Notes under the pieces: model-generated
Seen by the model: only the letters and a program-made list of their open reading frames with translations
What the model was told of the DNA's origin: nothing
Database searches by the model: none
Shown: positions 12,694-20,150 of the stretch, piece by piece
Layout of the letters: the number at the start of each line of letters is the position of its first letter
Position numbering within the stretch: the stretch's first letter is position 1
Position numbers and translations under genes: made by a program
Assembly: GCA_030606485.1 (NCBI GenBank)
Contig: JAUWGH010000008.1
Location: 90,001 to 122,000 of the forward strand
Length of the DNA: 32,000 bases
Source: Promethearchaeota archaeon
Lineage (GTDB): Archaea > Asgardarchaeota > Lokiarchaeia > Sigyniarchaeales > SOKP01
Reading direction: 5' to 3'

Positions 12694-14115
12694 TTATTGT
12701 GATGAAATAAATTGATTATATTCATACATCATTTTTAAGGCCGTAATAGCTTCTTTTACTCGGTTCATTACTGGAATTTGAAATCTCAATGCTGGTTTTA
12801 ATATATAATCAAACACCCACCGAGAACCAAAAACACAAATAATGCAAGGCTTTTTAAATTTAGAGGAAAGATTTTTTATAATTCTTAATGATGGCATAAT
12901 GCTTACACCTAGCAATTCTAAGGGTAATCTTGGTACAGTAAAAAGGAACAATACACTATCAACATTATTGTCGTTGAAAATTGCCTTTAATGTAGGATTA
13001 AGAGTAATCATTTGAGATGGTCCTAGATCTACCGGATTTTTTAATGACACCCAATCGGGAGCCACTGCTCTCATCGATTGAATTGTATTTTCCCCAAGTT
13101 CAGCAAGAATAAGTCCTTGTTTTTCTAACTCATCGCATGCCAAAATTCCGATACTACCAGAGCCGGTTATAATGGCTACATTTTTTCCCCTAGGTAAAGG
13201 TTGTATAGCAAAAACTTGAGCAATATTAAACATCTCATAAAAATTATCTACTCGAAAAATACATGGATATTGCTTAAAGATAGCGTCAAATATCCGATCA
13301 TTACCAGCTAATGACCCAGTATGACTTTTAATTGCGTTAGAACCCAATTCACTTCTCCCATTTTTAAGAATTATAATTGGTTTTGTTATTTTTTTCAAGA
13401 CTTCGATAAAAGCATCACCTCTCTTTACTCCTTCTAGGTAAATGGTTATCACTTTAGTATCTGGATCATTTTCAAAATATTCTATCATATCAATTTCATC
13501 GACATCAATCTTGTTCCCTAGCGTTACAACCTTTGAGAAACCAATTTTCTGACCTACACTAGCCCAATCAATAAATACATTTCCTAAAACACCAGATTGA
13601 GCAATGATTGCAATATTACCTTTCACCGTTTTTGAAAAATCTACATCAGAACTAGTGAATTCATTATAAAAATTCGTAACACCTACACAATTAGGACCAA
13701 TTATACGAATATTAGAACTTTTAACGATTTCCTCTAATTCCTCTTGATATTTAATGTATTTCTTAATACCTGTTTCTGCAAAACCAGCTGTTTCTATTAT
13801 TATTCCTTTTACATGCTTATCTACGCAATCTCTTACAGCTTGAACTACACTCTCATTTCCTACTAAAATTATTGCTAAATCAATATTATCAGGAATATCC
13901 TTTATGTTTTTATATGCTTTATGTCCAAAAATTTTATCTTTATATAAATGAACTGGGTATGTCTTAAATTTTGAATTTAATAGATATTTTGTATTCCAAA
14001 ATCCAAATCTTGGAGAATCCGAAGCTCCAATTATTGCAATCGAGTTGGGAGCAAAAAATAAATTTAAGTTATTACATTCTGAATTATCGTTATTATGTTT
14101 AATTTCCTTCTCCAT
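12694..14115 (-). CDS. ADP-forming acyl-CoA synthetase alpha subunit (CoA-binding, AcdA-like)
   Basis: 473 aa. PNSIAIIGAS, AGFAE, IIGPNCVG, AQSG, LGNKID, YLEG, SHTGSLAG (phospho-His), NPVDL. No beta subunit in the window. Confidence 0.85.
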   Translation of the reverse strand: MEKEIKHNNDNSECNNLNLFFAPNSIAIIGASDSPRFGFWNTKYLLNSKFKTYPVHLYKDKIFGHKAYKNIKDIPDNIDLAIILVGNESVVQAVRDCVDKHVKGIIIETAGFAETGIKKYIKYQEELEEIVKSSNIRIIGPNCVGVTNFYNEFTSSDVDFSKTVKGNIAIIAQSGVLGNVFIDWASVGQKIGFSKVVTLGNKIDVDEIDMIEYFENDPDTKVITIYLEGVKRGDAFIEVLKKITKPIIILKNGRSELGSNAIKSHTGSLAGNDRIFDAIFKQYPCIFRVDNFYEMFNIAQVFAIQPLPRGKNVAIITGSGSIGILACDELEKQGLILAELGENTIQSMRAVAPDWVSLKNPVDLGPSQMITLNPTLKAIFNDNNVDSVLFLFTVPRLPLELLGVSIMPSLRIIKNLSSKFKKPCIICVFGSRWVFDYILKPALRFQIPVMNRVKEAITALKMMYEYNQFISSQ

Positions 14116-14332
14116 ACTTTTTTTAATATTTTCACGTTTAATAATTAATTGATATATCGATTAAATTCAGATATTTTATTTTCCATTAAATTTTTAAAAA
14201 CTTTTAAACAATATACCTTTTTAATCCATAACAAATAATAATTTATTATTTAAATCTGAAAGCTAATTAGAAATTATTAAATTAAAATAATTATAGAGAA
14301 TAATGGAGGTATTTTACAAAAAGGTGTAAAAA

Positions 14333-16261
14333 ATGTCTGAAATTCGCATTGGAGTATTTGTTTGCAGATGAGGAATAAATATTGCGGGGATATTAGATGT
14401 TCCAAAAATTGTCGATGAAATAGGTAAAATGGAGAATGTTTGGTCTTGGGAGTATTTAAATATATGTACAGATCCAGGAGCGACCTTTATTATTGAAAAG
14501 ATTAAAGATCTCGAGTTAGATCGGGTTGTAGTTTCAGCTTGAACACCAATAACACATCAACCGGTTTTTCATAGTGTCTTAGAGGATGCAGATTTACCAC
14601 CACGATTTCTTCAATTTGTTAATATTAGAGAACACTGCAGCTATGTCCATCAACAAGAACCAGAAATGGCTACACAAAAAGCGATTGAATTAATTAAGGC
14701 AGGCATTGCAAGAGCTGAGGTTTTAGAAGATATACCAACTAAAACAGTTCCAGTAGAGAAAGCAGCATTAGTAGTTGGTGGAGGAATAGCGGGATTGACA
14801 GCCAGTATTGATTTAGCAAATGAAGGGTTCAAGGTATACCTTGTTGAGAAAAAATCCACCACTGGTGGAAGAATGGCTCAATTGGATCGAACCTTTCCAA
14901 CCGATGATTGTTCCATATGAATTCTCGGACCTAAAATGTTGGCAGCCAATAGAAATCCAAATATTACGACAATGACAATGGCCGAAGTTTTAGAAGTGGA
15001 TGGCTATATTGGTAATTTTTCCGTTAAGGTGCGTAAGAATCCAAGATATGTTTACGAAGATATCTGTACTGGTTGTGGTGCATGTTCAGATGTATGTCCC
15101 ATATATATGCCAAATTATTTTGATGAAAATCTCTCGGCTAGAAAATGTATAGATGTAGCTTTTGCACAAGCAGTTCCTGCAGTTTGGGATCTTCAAACTG
15201 ATTGGTGTGTAGAATGTTACGCTTGTGTTGATTCTTGTGATGTTCATTGTATTGATTTAAGTCAAGAACCCGAAATTGTTGAATTTGAAGTAGGAACAAT
15301 TATTATTGCTACTGGTTGGGATATATATGAACCAGAAGAATATGGCTACGGAAAATATGATAATGTTATTACACAAATTCAACTTGAAAGAATTATCGCT
15401 CCGAATGGTCCAACTCTTGGACACTTAAAGCGGCCATCTGATGGAAAGAGACCAAAAAATATTTTGTTCATAAATTGTGTTGGGTCTAGAAATGAAGAGC
15501 ATCCATGGTGCAGTAATGTGTGTTGTTTATTGTCGATTAAAAATTCGAAATTAATCAAATCAGAATATCCAGATTCTAATATTGTAGTATCATATATCGA
15601 TATGAGATGTGCTGGAAAAGCATATGAAGAGTACTACAAACGCTCTAGAGACGCTGGAATCATGTTTATAAATGGGAAAGTGGGAACTTTACGAGAAAAT
15701 CCAGAAACAAAAAATCTCATTGCTACTATGGAGTCAATCGGAACTGGGGGTATTATTGAATATGAAGCCGATTTAGTGGTATTATCTTCGGCATCGCTAC
15801 CCTCAGCAGGTACAAATGAAATTGCAAATATTTTAAAGGTAGAAAAAAGTCCGAGTGGATTTTTAAAAGAATTCCACTCAAGACTTGATCCAATTGAGAC
15901 AAAAATAACTGGGATTTATATTTGTGGTTCGTGTCAAGGACAAAAAGATATCGGTGCAACTGTTAATCAAGCAAGAGGTGCAGCACAAGCTGCCTCAATC
16001 CCAATGACTGCTGGAGAATATACAATAGAATTAATTCGTGCACAAGCAAATGATGAACGTTGTGCCAAATGTTATAAATGTATTGAAACATGTCCTTATA
16101 GCGCTATATCAGTTGATGAAGCAGGGAAAATCGTAGTTGACCTTATTAATTGTAAAGGTTGTGGTATGTGTGCAGCAGTTTGTCCATCGATTGCTATAGA
16201 ATTACGTTATTATAGAGATTATCAATATAACGCAATTATTGATACATTATTTGAAGCGTAA
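14333..16261 (+). CDS. hdrA: Heterodisulfide reductase subunit A (flavin-based electron-bifurcating subunit), selenoprotein with 3 Sec, 642 aa
   Basis: One continuous frame from ATG 14333 (AGGTG RBS at 14322-14326) to TAA 16259-16261. In-frame TGA at 14369-14371 (codon 13, VFVCR-U-GINIAG), 14540-14542 (codon 70, VVSA-U-TP..HQ) and 14918-14920 (codon 196, FPTDDCSI-U-ILGPKM), each where HdrA has a conserved Cys. Also VVGGGIAG, two ferredoxin inserts, QLER and CSNVCCLLSIK. Merges track ORFs 14666-14920 and 14936-16261. Confidence 0.93.
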
Positions 16262-16279
16262 ACATAAAGAGGTAAAAAA

Positions 16280-16708
16280 ATGAGTTCTGATATAAAAATT
16301 GCGTCTTTTATGTGTTGGAAATGAGGGTATGGGGCGGGTGACATGGCGGGTACAATTCGAGCGCAATATCCGACTACAATTAGAGCAATATTAGTACCTT
16401 GCGCAGGAAGAGTTGGCTCTGAATTAATAATGAGAGCTATTGGTCAAGGTGCGGATGGTATTTTAATAGTTGGATGACACCCAGGTGAATGTGACTATGA
16501 AATCGGTAATAAACTGGCATACAGAGAAGTTGAATATATTAATCAAGTTCTAAATGTACTGGGTCTCTCAGATAAAAGAGTAAAGATGGAATATTGTAGT
16601 TCTGCAGAAGGGCAAAAATTTCAGCAAGTAGCAATTAATTTCGACAAGCTTATACGAAATCTTGGGAAAAATCCCCTTAATAAGAAAAGTTCCGACAAGA
16701 ATGAATAA
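16280..16708 (+). CDS. vhuD: Hydrogenase iron-sulfur subunit delta (MvhD/VhuD), selenoprotein with 2 Sec, 142 aa
   Basis: Absent from the ORF track. ATG 16280 (GAGGT RBS) to TAA 16706-16708: MSSDIKIASFMCWK-U-GYGAGDMAGTIRAQYPTTIRAILVPCAGRV...GADGILIVG-U-HPGECDYEIGN...YCSSAEGQKF...LGKNPL. TGA at 16322-16324 (codon 15) and 16475-16477 (codon 66), both at [2Fe-2S] Cys-ligand positions of MvhD. Confidence 0.93.
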
Positions 16709-16759
16709 TACGAGAAAATTTTAGTCGTGTTATGACTACCTGTTGCAGAGGTGTTGGAA
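16690..16759 (+). promoter_or_regulatory. Eukaryote-like SECIS element (selenocysteine insertion RNA structure)
   Basis: AUGA (16701-16704), then a 9-bp stem AUAAUACGA/UCGUGUUAU (16705-16713 with 16725-16733), an apical loop GAAAAUUUUAG and GA (16734-16735). Lower stem is CGACA/UGUUG (16693-16697 with 16741-16745) or UUCCGACA/UGUUGGAA (16690-16697 with 16752-16759). Lies at the 3' end of two TGA-containing genes. Confidence 0.82.
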
Positions 16760-16880
16760 ATAAAAAGTTTTTTAAAAAATATATAGAAATTTGTTCAAAA
16801 ATTAAATTGGAAAAAATAACGTTAAAAGATTCATAAAATTAAAAGTTAGGTTAATATTTATCTAAAGAAATATAAAATTC

Positions 16881-18017
16881 GTGATATTCATGGAGCCAAT
16901 GGAAGAATTACTGATAAAATATGATGATGTTAAGAGTATAATGGCAACGTTATTAAAAGAGAAAATAGTTTCTAAAATCATTAGTGGAGAAATTAAAAAA
17001 GGACATTTTAATGTATCCCCGAAATTGGTTTCAAAACTTGAAGAATTAGAAGATTTGCCACTTTCTCAACTCATTTCTTATGGTTATGCTCGAACCGATA
17101 GTGCATCTAAATTTTTACATAAAAATGCAAATGGCGCATTAGACGAAAAAGTTGGACTTATTGCTCGTCCTTGCGATACAAGAGCGATAATTGAACTTAT
17201 TAAATTACATCAAATCAATCCTGATAATTTATTTATTATTGCAATTGAAGATATGGGGATGATCCCGTCTTCAATGATTACAAGGATATTTAACAAAAGA
17301 AAGGAGTTTGATCAGAGTAAAATTATTCGGGATAAATTAACCGCTGAAAATCTTACCCTTATTTTAGATGGTGGGAGTTTAGAGGTTTTAGAGTTTAATG
17401 AAAATTTAAAAATAGCAGATAACTGTTTGAGATGCCTAAGAAAAGTTCCTGTTATGGGTGATTTATCGATAAGTGATATCGGAATCTCTGTAAAATCAGA
17501 TGATTTGATATTGCGTGTTTATTCTGAGAAGGGAAAGTCTGCTGTTGAGAAAGCTGGAATCAAAACCAGAAAAATTCCCGATGACCTAAAAAATCACAAT
17601 TCTGAAAGAGTAGAGACTATTTTAAAAAATGCTGAAGAAAAACGCACTAAAGATTTGGAAGAATGGAAAACTATGAATCAAGATGAAAAATTGGAAATGT
17701 TAAACAAATGCACTATGTGTGGTCTCTGCATTCGAGGTTGCCCCGTATGTTACTGCATTGATTGTATTTTAATGCAAAAACGAAAGGAAAAAACAATTAA
17801 TAATATTACATTTCAATTAACCCGCGTTGCACATGTCGCTGACAGATGTGTAGAATGTGGTAATTGTGCCAATAATTGTCCAATGAACTTACCATTATCT
17901 GAATACTTCCAATCATTAATTGAAACATTTAAAGAGAAATTTAATTATATTGCTGGAGAATCAGTTGATGATATTCCATTCCGTTCAGGAAAAGCAATTA
18001 AGGAAATGGAATTATAA
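16881..18017 (+). CDS. FdhB/FrhB-family (F420-dehydrogenase beta subunit-like) iron-sulfur protein with C-terminal 4Fe-4S dicluster
   Basis: 378 aa. ARPCD..AIIEL....QI..DN, NCLRC, CTMCGLCIRGCPVCYCIDC, FQLTRVAHVADRCVECGNCANNCP. Confidence 0.8.
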   Translation: MIFMEPMEELLIKYDDVKSIMATLLKEKIVSKIISGEIKKGHFNVSPKLVSKLEELEDLPLSQLISYGYARTDSASKFLHKNANGALDEKVGLIARPCDTRAIIELIKLHQINPDNLFIIAIEDMGMIPSSMITRIFNKRKEFDQSKIIRDKLTAENLTLILDGGSLEVLEFNENLKIADNCLRCLRKVPVMGDLSISDIGISVKSDDLILRVYSEKGKSAVEKAGIKTRKIPDDLKNHNSERVETILKNAEEKRTKDLEEWKTMNQDEKLEMLNKCTMCGLCIRGCPVCYCIDCILMQKRKEKTINNITFQLTRVAHVADRCVECGNCANNCPMNLPLSEYFQSLIETFKEKFNYIAGESVDDIPFRSGKAIKEMEL

Positions 18018-18095
18018 AAACTGCATAAAAAAATGATTTTTTTATTAAATTCTTATCTATTATATATCCAGACAGTGAGATAAAGTTGCACCCTG

Positions 18096-20150
18096 ATGCT
18101 GGATGATGTTAAGATGATTACAAACAAAAGAATGATTAAGCATAAAATAATTGGTTTAACATTTATTTTTAGTGTTATTTTGTCTTCCTTTATTATTTTA
18201 AAATGTATTGATTTAAACAATAATTGTACCCGATATAATTCTACAAAGATTCTGACTTCTAATTCTAATAATTTTAACATATTGACATTTTGGGATCAAG
18301 AAATTGAACGCGTAAATAATACTTTATCAAATATTGAACTAGGAGAAAATTCTACTTTAAAATATACTAATCCTAATACAAAAGAAGAATATGATTTTAT
18401 TGTTCAAGAAATTCACTTTGATTCTCCAAATTGGGTCGATGCTACTCCCACAATTATAAAACTGCATGGATATCTTCTATACCCAGAAGAATTAAAAAAT
18501 AAAAATCCTGGATGTTTATGTATGCACGGTTTGGGTGGTAATGCTAACAAGTCTTTTGAGTTTGCTGCGCCTTATTTAGAAAATGGTTTTATGGTTTTAT
18601 GCCATTCTCATCCTGGGCATGGAAAATCCGAAGGGACAAACCCTACGCCAAATAATTTTTATTATGAAGGAGAATATAACAAATCATCACATCATTATTT
18701 GACTCTTTGCGGGGCTATTCAAGGGTTAAGAGTCTTGGAAAGTCTTAATCTTGTTAACAACTCAGAAATTATGGTTACTGGAAGTTCATATGGTGGATTA
18801 AATACCATGTATTTATCTGGTGTTTGTGGAGAGAGAATTGCGGGGGCAATACCATATATTGCTGTAGGTGATTATGAAAAGAATAATGAAGATCCTACGA
18901 AGCTTTTATTTTGGGTATGGAATAAAAATATTAATGAAATCCCTGATTCTTATTGGAATGAACAAAATCTAAGAACCGATCCAATATATTATTTAGCATC
19001 AGATAAGGTACCGCCAATTTTTTGGGAATTTGGCACTACAGATGAATTTTTTTATCATCATTGTATTATTAATACCTACGAAAAGGTTAATCATACTGAT
19101 AAATATCTTCAAATTCATCCTAATGGACACCATGGATTATTTGATTATGAAAATACGACAAAATTTTTTATTGATTATATTATTAGTAAGGGTTCAGCTC
19201 CTCCTAAAATTGATATTAAGGATCACATAAAAGGAAACAATATATTGGGTGATTATTTAGAAATTGAAGTGCATGTAGATTCGGATGTAAATATAGAATC
19301 AGTTCAAGTTGTATATAAATATCTTGATATTATAGGAACTTGTTGGGAAAAAGTTAATCTTGAAGAATCTGAAGAAGATATTTGGATAGGTATTTTAAAT
19401 CCAGGAGTTATTACATCAGATGTTGATTATTATATAATTGTTAATTTAGAAGGCGAAAATAATGTATGGTTCAGTTCGAAAATTTATACTGTAGGAAAAC
19501 TTATTAGTAATTTAACTATTCCATTTTATATTTTATTCATTGTTTTCATATCTTTTCCAGCAATTTTGTTAATTTGGAGGAGATATAAAAAAAATGTTAA
19601 AGAATTAGAGGAAAAATTTCAACGTGGAGCTAAAAAAAATTTAATCTTAGAAGTTTCTTTTTTGGGAATAACCGAAATGCTTTTTTTTATATCATTAATT
19701 TTACCAATAGCAGAATTTGGAAACAGTGGAGTATCATGGTCTTCAATATTTGTCTTTAACAAGTTATATACTTGGAAAGCGGTTTTTGGAAGTATGGCTC
19801 CATTTTTAACATCCATATTCCTTATTATATTTATATTATTTTTCCATATAAGCCTAATGAAACCAATAATTGCAGGTTTTTTCAAAATTGCTTATTTTTT
19901 ATACGCATTACTATTATATTCTGTCATTTCAGGTGTTATAGGGGGCTCGTCTGAGTTGGATAATTTTGGAATAATTAATTTAGGAATAGGCTTTTATTTA
20001 ATATTAATCGTGGCATTGATGTATATTAGTATAGGCGTTTGGAAACGATATTATCAAATAAATTTTAGAATAAGAGAACCTAAAAGGAAATTTTATAATA
20101 TTGACAGATGGTTTAGATTAAAAAGCTCAAGTAAGAAAAGGACTGATTAA
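18096..20150 (+). CDS. Surface-exposed alpha/beta-hydrolase (serine esterase/peptidase-like) with C-terminal multi-pass membrane domain
   Basis: 684 aa. N-terminal hydrophobic segment, MHGLGG, GSSYGG nucleophile elbow, GTTDEFF (Asp), PNGHHG (His), then about 5 TM segments. The start may be one of the downstream ATGs. Confidence 0.75.
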   Translation: MLDDVKMITNKRMIKHKIIGLTFIFSVILSSFIILKCIDLNNNCTRYNSTKILTSNSNNFNILTFWDQEIERVNNTLSNIELGENSTLKYTNPNTKEEYDFIVQEIHFDSPNWVDATPTIIKLHGYLLYPEELKNKNPGCLCMHGLGGNANKSFEFAAPYLENGFMVLCHSHPGHGKSEGTNPTPNNFYYEGEYNKSSHHYLTLCGAIQGLRVLESLNLVNNSEIMVTGSSYGGLNTMYLSGVCGERIAGAIPYIAVGDYEKNNEDPTKLLFWVWNKNINEIPDSYWNEQNLRTDPIYYLASDKVPPIFWEFGTTDEFFYHHCIINTYEKVNHTDKYLQIHPNGHHGLFDYENTTKFFIDYIISKGSAPPKIDIKDHIKGNNILGDYLEIEVHVDSDVNIESVQVVYKYLDIIGTCWEKVNLEESEEDIWIGILNPGVITSDVDYYIIVNLEGENNVWFSSKIYTVGKLISNLTIPFYILFIVFISFPAILLIWRRYKKNVKELEEKFQRGAKKNLILEVSFLGITEMLFFISLILPIAEFGNSGVSWSSIFVFNKLYTWKAVFGSMAPFLTSIFLIIFILFFHISLMKPIIAGFFKIAYFLYALLLYSVISGVIGGSSELDNFGIINLGIGFYLILIVALMYISIGVWKRYYQINFRIREPKRKFYNIDRWFRLKSSSKKRTD

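Follow-up and report, generated by a model that had tools for sequence, protein, structure and literature searches.

How five in-frame UGA codons distributed over two adjacent genes could all be read as selenocysteine (Sec) is the question raised by the hdrA-vhuD locus of this Promethearchaeota genome. Within the window, the stretch of 32,000 nt that was analysed, hdrA (encoding a homologue of heterodisulfide-reductase subunit A) occupies positions 14333..16261 of the + strand (642 codons, TAA stop) and has in-frame TGA codons at 14369-14371, 14540-14542 and 14918-14920 (U13, U70 and U196 of its product). It is followed on the same strand by vhuD/mvhD, of the FlpD family, at 16280..16708 (142 codons, with a TAA stop at 16706-16708), in which the in-frame TGA codons are at 16322-16324 and 16475-16477 (U15 and U66). 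Once TGA is read as Sec the two are adjacent open frames, separated by 18 nt (16262..16279, + strand) that include a Shine-Dalgarno-like GAGGU at 16269-16273. This gap is too short to have room for either a promoter or a SECIS, the latter being a point already made in the preliminary description of the locus. The vhuD product is a full-length member of the FlpD/MvhD family (1.5e-39 for Pfam FlpD), and solved HdrA chains match the hdrA product end to end (2e-210); in the alignment to these chains U13 and U70 fall on conserved cysteines, and U196 aligns with a non-standard residue (printed X) of chain 9sfi_A. Homology between the Sec-site pairs of HdrA and VhuD was also considered, and since the N-terminal domain of HdrA gave no significant BLASTP match to VhuD (E 1.8), none is claimed.

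The element that might answer the question lies at the end of vhuD, at 16690..16759 of the + strand. Its core (16701..16735) consists of AUGA at 16701-04, a perfect and uninterrupted 9-bp helix II (16705-13 with 16725-33), an apical loop of 11 nt at 16714-24 (GAAAAUUUUAG) and GA at 16734-35, exactly the arrangement of AUGA, 9-bp stem, A-rich loop and GA that had been reported from inspection of the letters. The vhuD stop codon (16706-08) is inside the 5' strand of the stem, and the AUGA is within the last sense codons of vhuD. Measured to the AUGA, the last UGA is 226 nt upstream and the first 2,332 nt upstream, in hdrA, so the earlier estimate of about 2.3 kb and a different open reading frame was accurate. 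A strict SECIS pattern occurred once in the window against 0.002 occurrences expected (2/1000 simulated windows) and four times in the whole 3.75-Mb genome, three of the four directly behind UGA-containing genes, and the fold of 16685-16770 gave z = -2.7. The motif is also strongly conserved: the AUGA is invariant in 21 aligned orthologues of the vhuD element, a pattern scan found GA as the 3' core in 73/74 orthologous loci, and the loop is 11 nt long in 58 of the 74, in all 58 of which loop positions 3-5 are AAA and the last loop base is G. The AUGA of the orthologous loci starts between -7 and +22 nt relative to the end of vhuD. An iron-sulfur gene of the FrhB/FdhB type, itself without a UGA, lies downstream of the spacer that holds the element (16881..18017, + strand), and because such a gene is present at +117 to +260 nt in 75/80 orthologous loci the SECIS can be placed within the conserved spacer of a three-gene cluster. 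A conserved motif upstream of the frhB-like gene, considered as a promoter or ribosome-binding site, proved to be coding sequence that includes an alternative start codon and was set aside.

The presence of a recognisable SECIS at one site does not by itself say whether it is the only one. A covariance model, R1, was built from 21 orthologous elements occupying the same place behind vhuD in relatives. With filters off, it scored the element at 16690-16759 at 50 bits (E 7e-10), whereas the next-best match in the 32 kb reached 13.5 bits, elsewhere in the window, and nothing within hdrA-vhuD exceeded 8.1 bits. Given this difference and the single occurrence of the strict pattern, the original statement that this is the only convincing SECIS in the window was correct. 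The same held among relatives. Twenty-seven loci spanning the whole of hdrA and its leader each gave a single strong R1 match, after vhuD (filters off), and across 80 orthologous loci taken from species-representative Promethearchaeota genomes one match after vhuD was returned by R1 in 79/80 and by a larger model, R2, in 80/80, with neither model finding a match inside hdrA in any of the 80. The best match upstream of any hdrA was 23 bits (E 0.035), at one locus. Thus, the second SECIS in or before hdrA that would have spoken for separate signals was seen neither in the window nor in the 27 extended or the 80 species-level loci, counts that overstate independence because the loci are related to one another. 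Both models recognise only Loki-type elements, that is, those resembling the known one, and R1 misses type-II-like variants (the selD elements, the hdrA-vhuD-like pair at C1:56637 and two relatives in family f2), which were read by eye from folds. No SECIS family of Rfam matched in the window at the gathering threshold, or in 14000-18200 at E values up to 10. This silence agrees with the published behaviour of Loki elements. One R1 match in an RtcB-like gene elsewhere in the genome (C6:119712, 28.9 bits) was weak and was taken as chance.

The preliminary description had also proposed that covariation and conservation of the AUGA/GA core be checked in orthologous loci, and here the core motif was retained as described above and all nine pairs of helix II (9/9) showed changes on both sides. 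The 74 loci contained 37 distinct stem sequences; helix II cells were paired in 93-95% of cases against about 40% when the partner strand was slid, and the observed covariation score was reached by 0/500 shuffles. Because the training set of R1 was picked by a pattern that demanded pairing, it is the covariation and the fixed position that are informative here, and not the percentage of paired cells.

The genome itself provided a comparison that ties the element to selenocysteine. It contains 11 hdrA-vhuD-like pairs, four of which contain UGA; a type-I element is found behind three of these four, and the fourth (C1:56637) has a variant whose loop contains a ministem. A pair of the Sec type is also present in two relatives whose genomes are closed single contigs (G032 and G038). 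The other seven pairs are of the Cys type, and behind them R1 gave no match above 15 bits, even with filters off. Genome-wide, the strong R1 matches are those behind UGA-containing genes. The element is therefore present, unique, conserved and covarying, and it accompanies UGA-containing genes only. The host can be counted as having Sec machinery, since a tRNA-Sec (47.1 bits with the Rfam model, against a threshold of 47) adjoins the gene for SepSecS (487 bits) and the SelD gene carries one UGA, although ARAGORN found no tRNA-Sec in the genome. A candidate small membrane selenoprotein was also noted elsewhere in the genome.

These observations bear on readings in which the hairpin has nothing to do with Sec, being instead a terminator, an mRNA-stabilising structure or a generic site for a kink-turn protein, or in which the TGA codons are real stops, sequence errors or a reassigned codon. 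A run of six U (16768..16773, + strand), 9 nt after the element, could be an archaeal terminator. However, the run is not conserved: at least five consecutive T were present within 160 nt after the element in 12/21 sampled orthologous loci, and within 45 nt in eight, and the terminator was rejected on this ground. The absence of the element behind the seven Cys-type pairs, and the restriction of strong matches to UGA-containing genes, likewise argue against any function unrelated to Sec. As to the codons, it counts against these readings that the UGA-containing frames stay open and conserved beyond every TGA in 72 complete orthologues, and that TGA remains an ordinary stop in this genome, where it closes 201/1,571 long frames (13%). 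We therefore give this group of explanations hardly any weight.

A harder question is whether the element, lying behind vhuD, also acts on hdrA. Complete hdrA orthologues have 2-4 UGAs and vhuD orthologues have 2, and the gap between the genes is 4-22 nt in 79 orthologous loci. One possibility is that the element works for the two UGAs of vhuD alone, those of hdrA being decoded through some other signal, such as a local hairpin, an element in the 5'-UTR or a SECIS of the euryarchaeal GAA_A type. That R1 and R2 see only Loki-type elements leaves some space for this idea, and the stretch after the first UGA does fold slightly better than shuffles (z -1.9). However, this hairpin was not kept in 22 orthologues and paralogues, which gave differing folds and a mean z of -0.27, none of the other four UGAs is followed by sequence that folds better than shuffles, the 5' leader, which is extremely rich in A and T, has a fold z of -0.7 to -1.0, and Rfam found nothing. 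A natural exception was also instructive. In G031, a relative from another family, hdrA lies about 660 nt from vhuD and ends in TGA, and here hdrA has its own Loki-type SECIS within 30 nt downstream, with vhuD keeping a separate one. As this element was detected, the model evidently finds an hdrA SECIS where one exists, and the hdrA signal that it found was Loki-type and directly behind the gene. A separate signal for hdrA in the window is accordingly considered unlikely.

The choice of stop codons points in the same direction. The hdrA stop was TAA or TAG in 79/79 loci (TGA in 0/79), whereas vhuD ended in TGA in 8/80, to be compared with the 13% of long frames genome-wide, a contrast that is drawn from related loci and so is not a clean statistical test. 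The lack of TGA at the end of hdrA would be expected if a TGA there were recoded and one adjacent to the SECIS were not. This also bears on the idea that an internal promoter or RNA processing puts hdrA and vhuD on different transcripts, in which case the SECIS would either work on hdrA in trans or have no effect on it. Processing does occur in some archaeal operons, but the 4-22-nt gaps, which carry a ribosome-binding site, are too small for a promoter, the order of the two genes is strictly kept, and the avoidance of TGA stops is what would be expected if the SECIS acts on the hdrA frame. Separate transcripts thus seem very unlikely, more so than a separate hdrA signal.

Taken with the absence of a second SECIS and the retention of the AUGA/GA core, this comparison of related loci supports the long-range, cross-cistron action originally proposed. 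We would put at roughly 85% the probability that 16690-16759 is a Loki-type SECIS located at the 3' terminus of a bicistronic mRNA carrying hdrA and vhuD, and the only Sec-insertion signal for all five UGAs, a judgement that is based on sequence comparison; co-transcription of the two genes and long-range action over the cistron boundary are what we infer from it. One SECIS would then serve both the vhuD UGAs, which lie 0.2-0.4 kb upstream of it, and the three of hdrA, at 1.8-2.3 kb upstream. At the foot of the 9-bp helix with its A-rich 11-nt loop, the AUGA/GA core probably folds as a kink-turn, and this core would be seated in a three-way junction whose other arms are the lower helix and a small hairpin on the 3' side. 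A SECIS-binding factor, or perhaps archaeal EFSec itself, would load Sec-tRNASec onto ribosomes, and recoding could then reach any UGA on the same mRNA, in either cistron. One feature sits uneasily with this model: since the vhuD stop codon is part of the element, the fold must be melted by each ribosome that terminates there, which is awkward for an element that serves ribosomes upstream. A lokiarchaeal SECIS has also been reported to be non-functional in Methanococcus maripaludis (Peiter et al. 2025, PMC11881835), and this failure may reflect just the missing cognate factor.

In substance the proposal is already known, being the published hypothesis of a lokiSECIS shared by HdrA and VhuD, which was rediscovered here. 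In the lokiSECIS as described by Mariotti et al. (2016, PMC4989117), AUGA and GA flank a 9-bp stem whose 11-nt loop begins with adenines and closes with a conserved G. The 3' dinucleotide of this class is rarely AA. All HdrA-VhuD tandems had the element behind VhuD and nowhere else, and the authors concluded that both genes share it as part of one polycistronic mRNA, that it supports as many as six UGAs within about 2 kb, and that UAA or UAG is invariably the stop of HdrA (PMC4989117); the same arrangement was repeated for >400 Asgard genomes (Huang, Xiao & Zhang 2024, PMC11227280). The window element agrees in its AUGA, 9-bp stem, 11-nt loop (A-rich, then AG), GA and site at the vhuD end, and in having directly upstream, across a very short gap, an hdrA with a TAA/TAG stop that encodes a multi-Sec HdrA including the canonical position. 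The five UGAs are within the published range, and nothing essential differs; the stop codon lies in the stem, and a similar overlap has been published for VhuU. In stem, loop, AUGA, GA, position, covariation and host machinery it therefore belongs to the lokiSECIS of type I. If the shared reading is true, a single 3' element recoding five stops in two frames over 2.3 kb would be the longest-range SECIS known and the only one to work across cistrons. Such a shared SECIS, claimed in the literature since 2016, also bears on the origin of the eukaryotic selenocysteine system. What is added here is that covariance models confirm the arrangement independently in about 80 species genomes, that the separated hdrA with a SECIS to itself serves as a natural control and the seven Cys-type pairs as a negative one, and that the three-way junction makes the model of the secondary structure more complete.

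Other SECIS systems resemble the window element less closely. With the type-I eukaryotic SECIS (Rfam RF00031) it shares a lower helix, the AUGA...GA quartet and an apical loop with unpaired adenines, and it too is located 3' of the coding sequence and would act at a distance. It departs from the eukaryotic elements in escaping the Rfam model at E values as high as 10, in its shorter helix II (9 bp) and in a further hairpin placed 3' in the internal loop, and it would serve two cistrons in a lineage for which both PMC4989117 and PMC11227280 report no SBP2. Vertebrate selenoprotein P mRNA similarly has many UGAs decoded at long range from the 3' end, but this mRNA holds a single cistron, carries two SECIS elements and requires SBP2 (summarised in PMC4989117). 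The VhuD SECIS of Methanococcales and Methanopyrus likewise lies in the vhuD 3' UTR and serves two UGAs about 50 codons apart, and it also has AUGA and an extra stem (PMC4989117). A separate hdrA SECIS is described as having degenerated in Lokiarchaeota (PMC4989117), which implies that hdrA has its own SECIS in Methanococcales and Methanopyrus. Euryarchaeal SECIS elements in general differ in having a GAA_A asymmetric internal loop between GC-rich stems, whereas helix II in the window has no bulge. The SelB-binding hairpin of bacteria shares only the recoding of UGA as Sec, as it must sit directly 3' of each UGA, and no conserved hairpin of this kind was found at hdrA-vhuD.

The published core and the window element differ in the parts that surround the core. 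In the window a lower helix and a mini-hairpin are added, so that the whole forms a three-way junction, scored by R2 at 74.6 bits. Helix I, the lower helix, pairs 16690-96 with 16753-59 (7 bp, + strand) and is joined to the core by the 5' internal loop, AAGA; on the opposite side a 3' mini-hairpin (ACCU / GUUGCAG / AGGU, 16738..16752, + strand) separates the 3' strand of helix I from the GA core. In a plain MAFFT alignment both-side changes were found in 6/7 pairs of helix I and in 4/4 pairs of the mini-hairpin. A model-fitted alignment of 81 sequences, which leans towards the model, gave covariation at 7/7 and 4/4 pairs, with 94% of helix I cells and 99% of mini-hairpin cells paired. The locus itself occurs in sequencing runs from cold-seep and marine-sediment metagenomes, with no RNA run among those listed, and a population variant, T16755C, seen in contigs from four runs (one of which, though labelled metatranscriptomic, is probably DNA), turns a G-U pair of helix I into G-C. 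The mini-hairpin is mentioned neither in the main texts of PMC4989117 and PMC11227280, supplements aside, nor in the results of a literature search, so that the three-way junction may be an addition to the published core, as judged from these alignments and folds.

The same three-way layout was recognised by eye in the ministem variant of the fourth Sec-type pair, in the two family-f2 relatives, in the hdrA-specific element of G031 and in the selD elements of about 20 relatives, where the hairpin loops are often Y-G-N-R-A. It is possible, though we hold the idea tentatively and at odds rather below even, that Asgard SECIS elements in general are three-way junctions and not simple eukaryote-like stem-loops, in which the non-bulged strand is interrupted, between GA and the lower helix, by a 4-6-bp hairpin whose loop has a conserved GC (and is often Y-G-N-R-A-like). 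The mini-hairpin could hold the kink, or could provide a second contact for an Asgard SECIS-binding factor; either role, if true, might explain how the element functions without SBP2, over 2 kb and two cistrons. Its place on the non-bulged strand of what we presume to be a kink-turn is, speculatively, reminiscent of a k-junction. The hairpin was also found behind a small membrane-protein gene.

A separated version of the hdrA/vhuD arrangement was found in G031, the genome of a relative from another family (locus L057, G031:C209, 2003-2108 and 3100-3185). In this genome hdrA ends in a TGA stop codon and has a Loki-type SECIS of its own, about 660 nt lie between hdrA and vhuD, and the Sec codons comprise one only in hdrA and one only in vhuD. 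This arrangement may represent the state that preceded the sharing of one SECIS by hdrA and vhuD, or it may be the product of a later split.

Within the shared element, position 16755 of the window showed a T>C population variant in several sediment metagenomes, which converts a G-U pair of helix I to G-C, and the closest relative carries this same base. The three-way layout of the vhuD element was also seen by eye in the SECIS of selD, which in the genome from which the window comes lies at C1:19411-20415 and contains one UGA. In the comparison set taken from G000 and its relatives (loci L155-L175), each selD had one UGA and a SECIS 3' of the gene, in which a 4-6-bp hairpin capped by a Y-G-N-R-A-like loop separates the GA core from the 3' strand of the lower helix. 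The ministem (type II) form accounts for most of these elements and the 9-bp/11-nt form for a few. At C2:188523-190018 (minus strand), the genome from which the window comes also has a tRNA-Sec gene (113 nt, 47.1 bits) that immediately adjoins the SepSecS gene.

An FrhB/FdhB-like gene (window 16881-18017) follows hdrA, vhuD and the SECIS in 75 of the 80 orthologous loci, and its N-terminus is conserved in relatives as M-S-W-K/N-x-M-D. As its start codon is TTG, ATG or GTG with no clear ribosome-binding site, the gene may have a leaderless transcript of its own. About 80 nt beyond the end of this gene, on the opposite strand, two loci of the same genus carry a well-formed SECIS-like element (L068:4757-4801 and L069:4757-4801, both minus strand) with AUGA, 9 bp, the loop AAAAAUGUUAG, GA and a mini-hairpin; no obvious reading frame was found upstream of it, and window 18018-18095 has no counterpart.

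Finally, an unannotated gene of 51 codons (C1:355019-355171, minus strand; see also loci L059 and L060) was found about 45 nt 5' of a perfect Loki-type SECIS (C1:354908-354997, minus strand), which scored 41 bits with R1, the covariance model built from 21 orthologous vhuD elements, and 43.5 bits with the larger model R2. The predicted product would cross the membrane once and has a Pro-rich tail with the terminus GGG-U-C, a layout reminiscent of eukaryotic SelK/SelS. A Pfam search with it returned no family above the cut-off, and it is absent from the archaeal selenoprotein families listed in PMC11227280 and PMC13188914. The gene, its UGA and the SECIS are kept in three further genomes of the genus with the C-terminus GGG-U-G/C, and a more distant homologue of the product is present in another genus of the same family.
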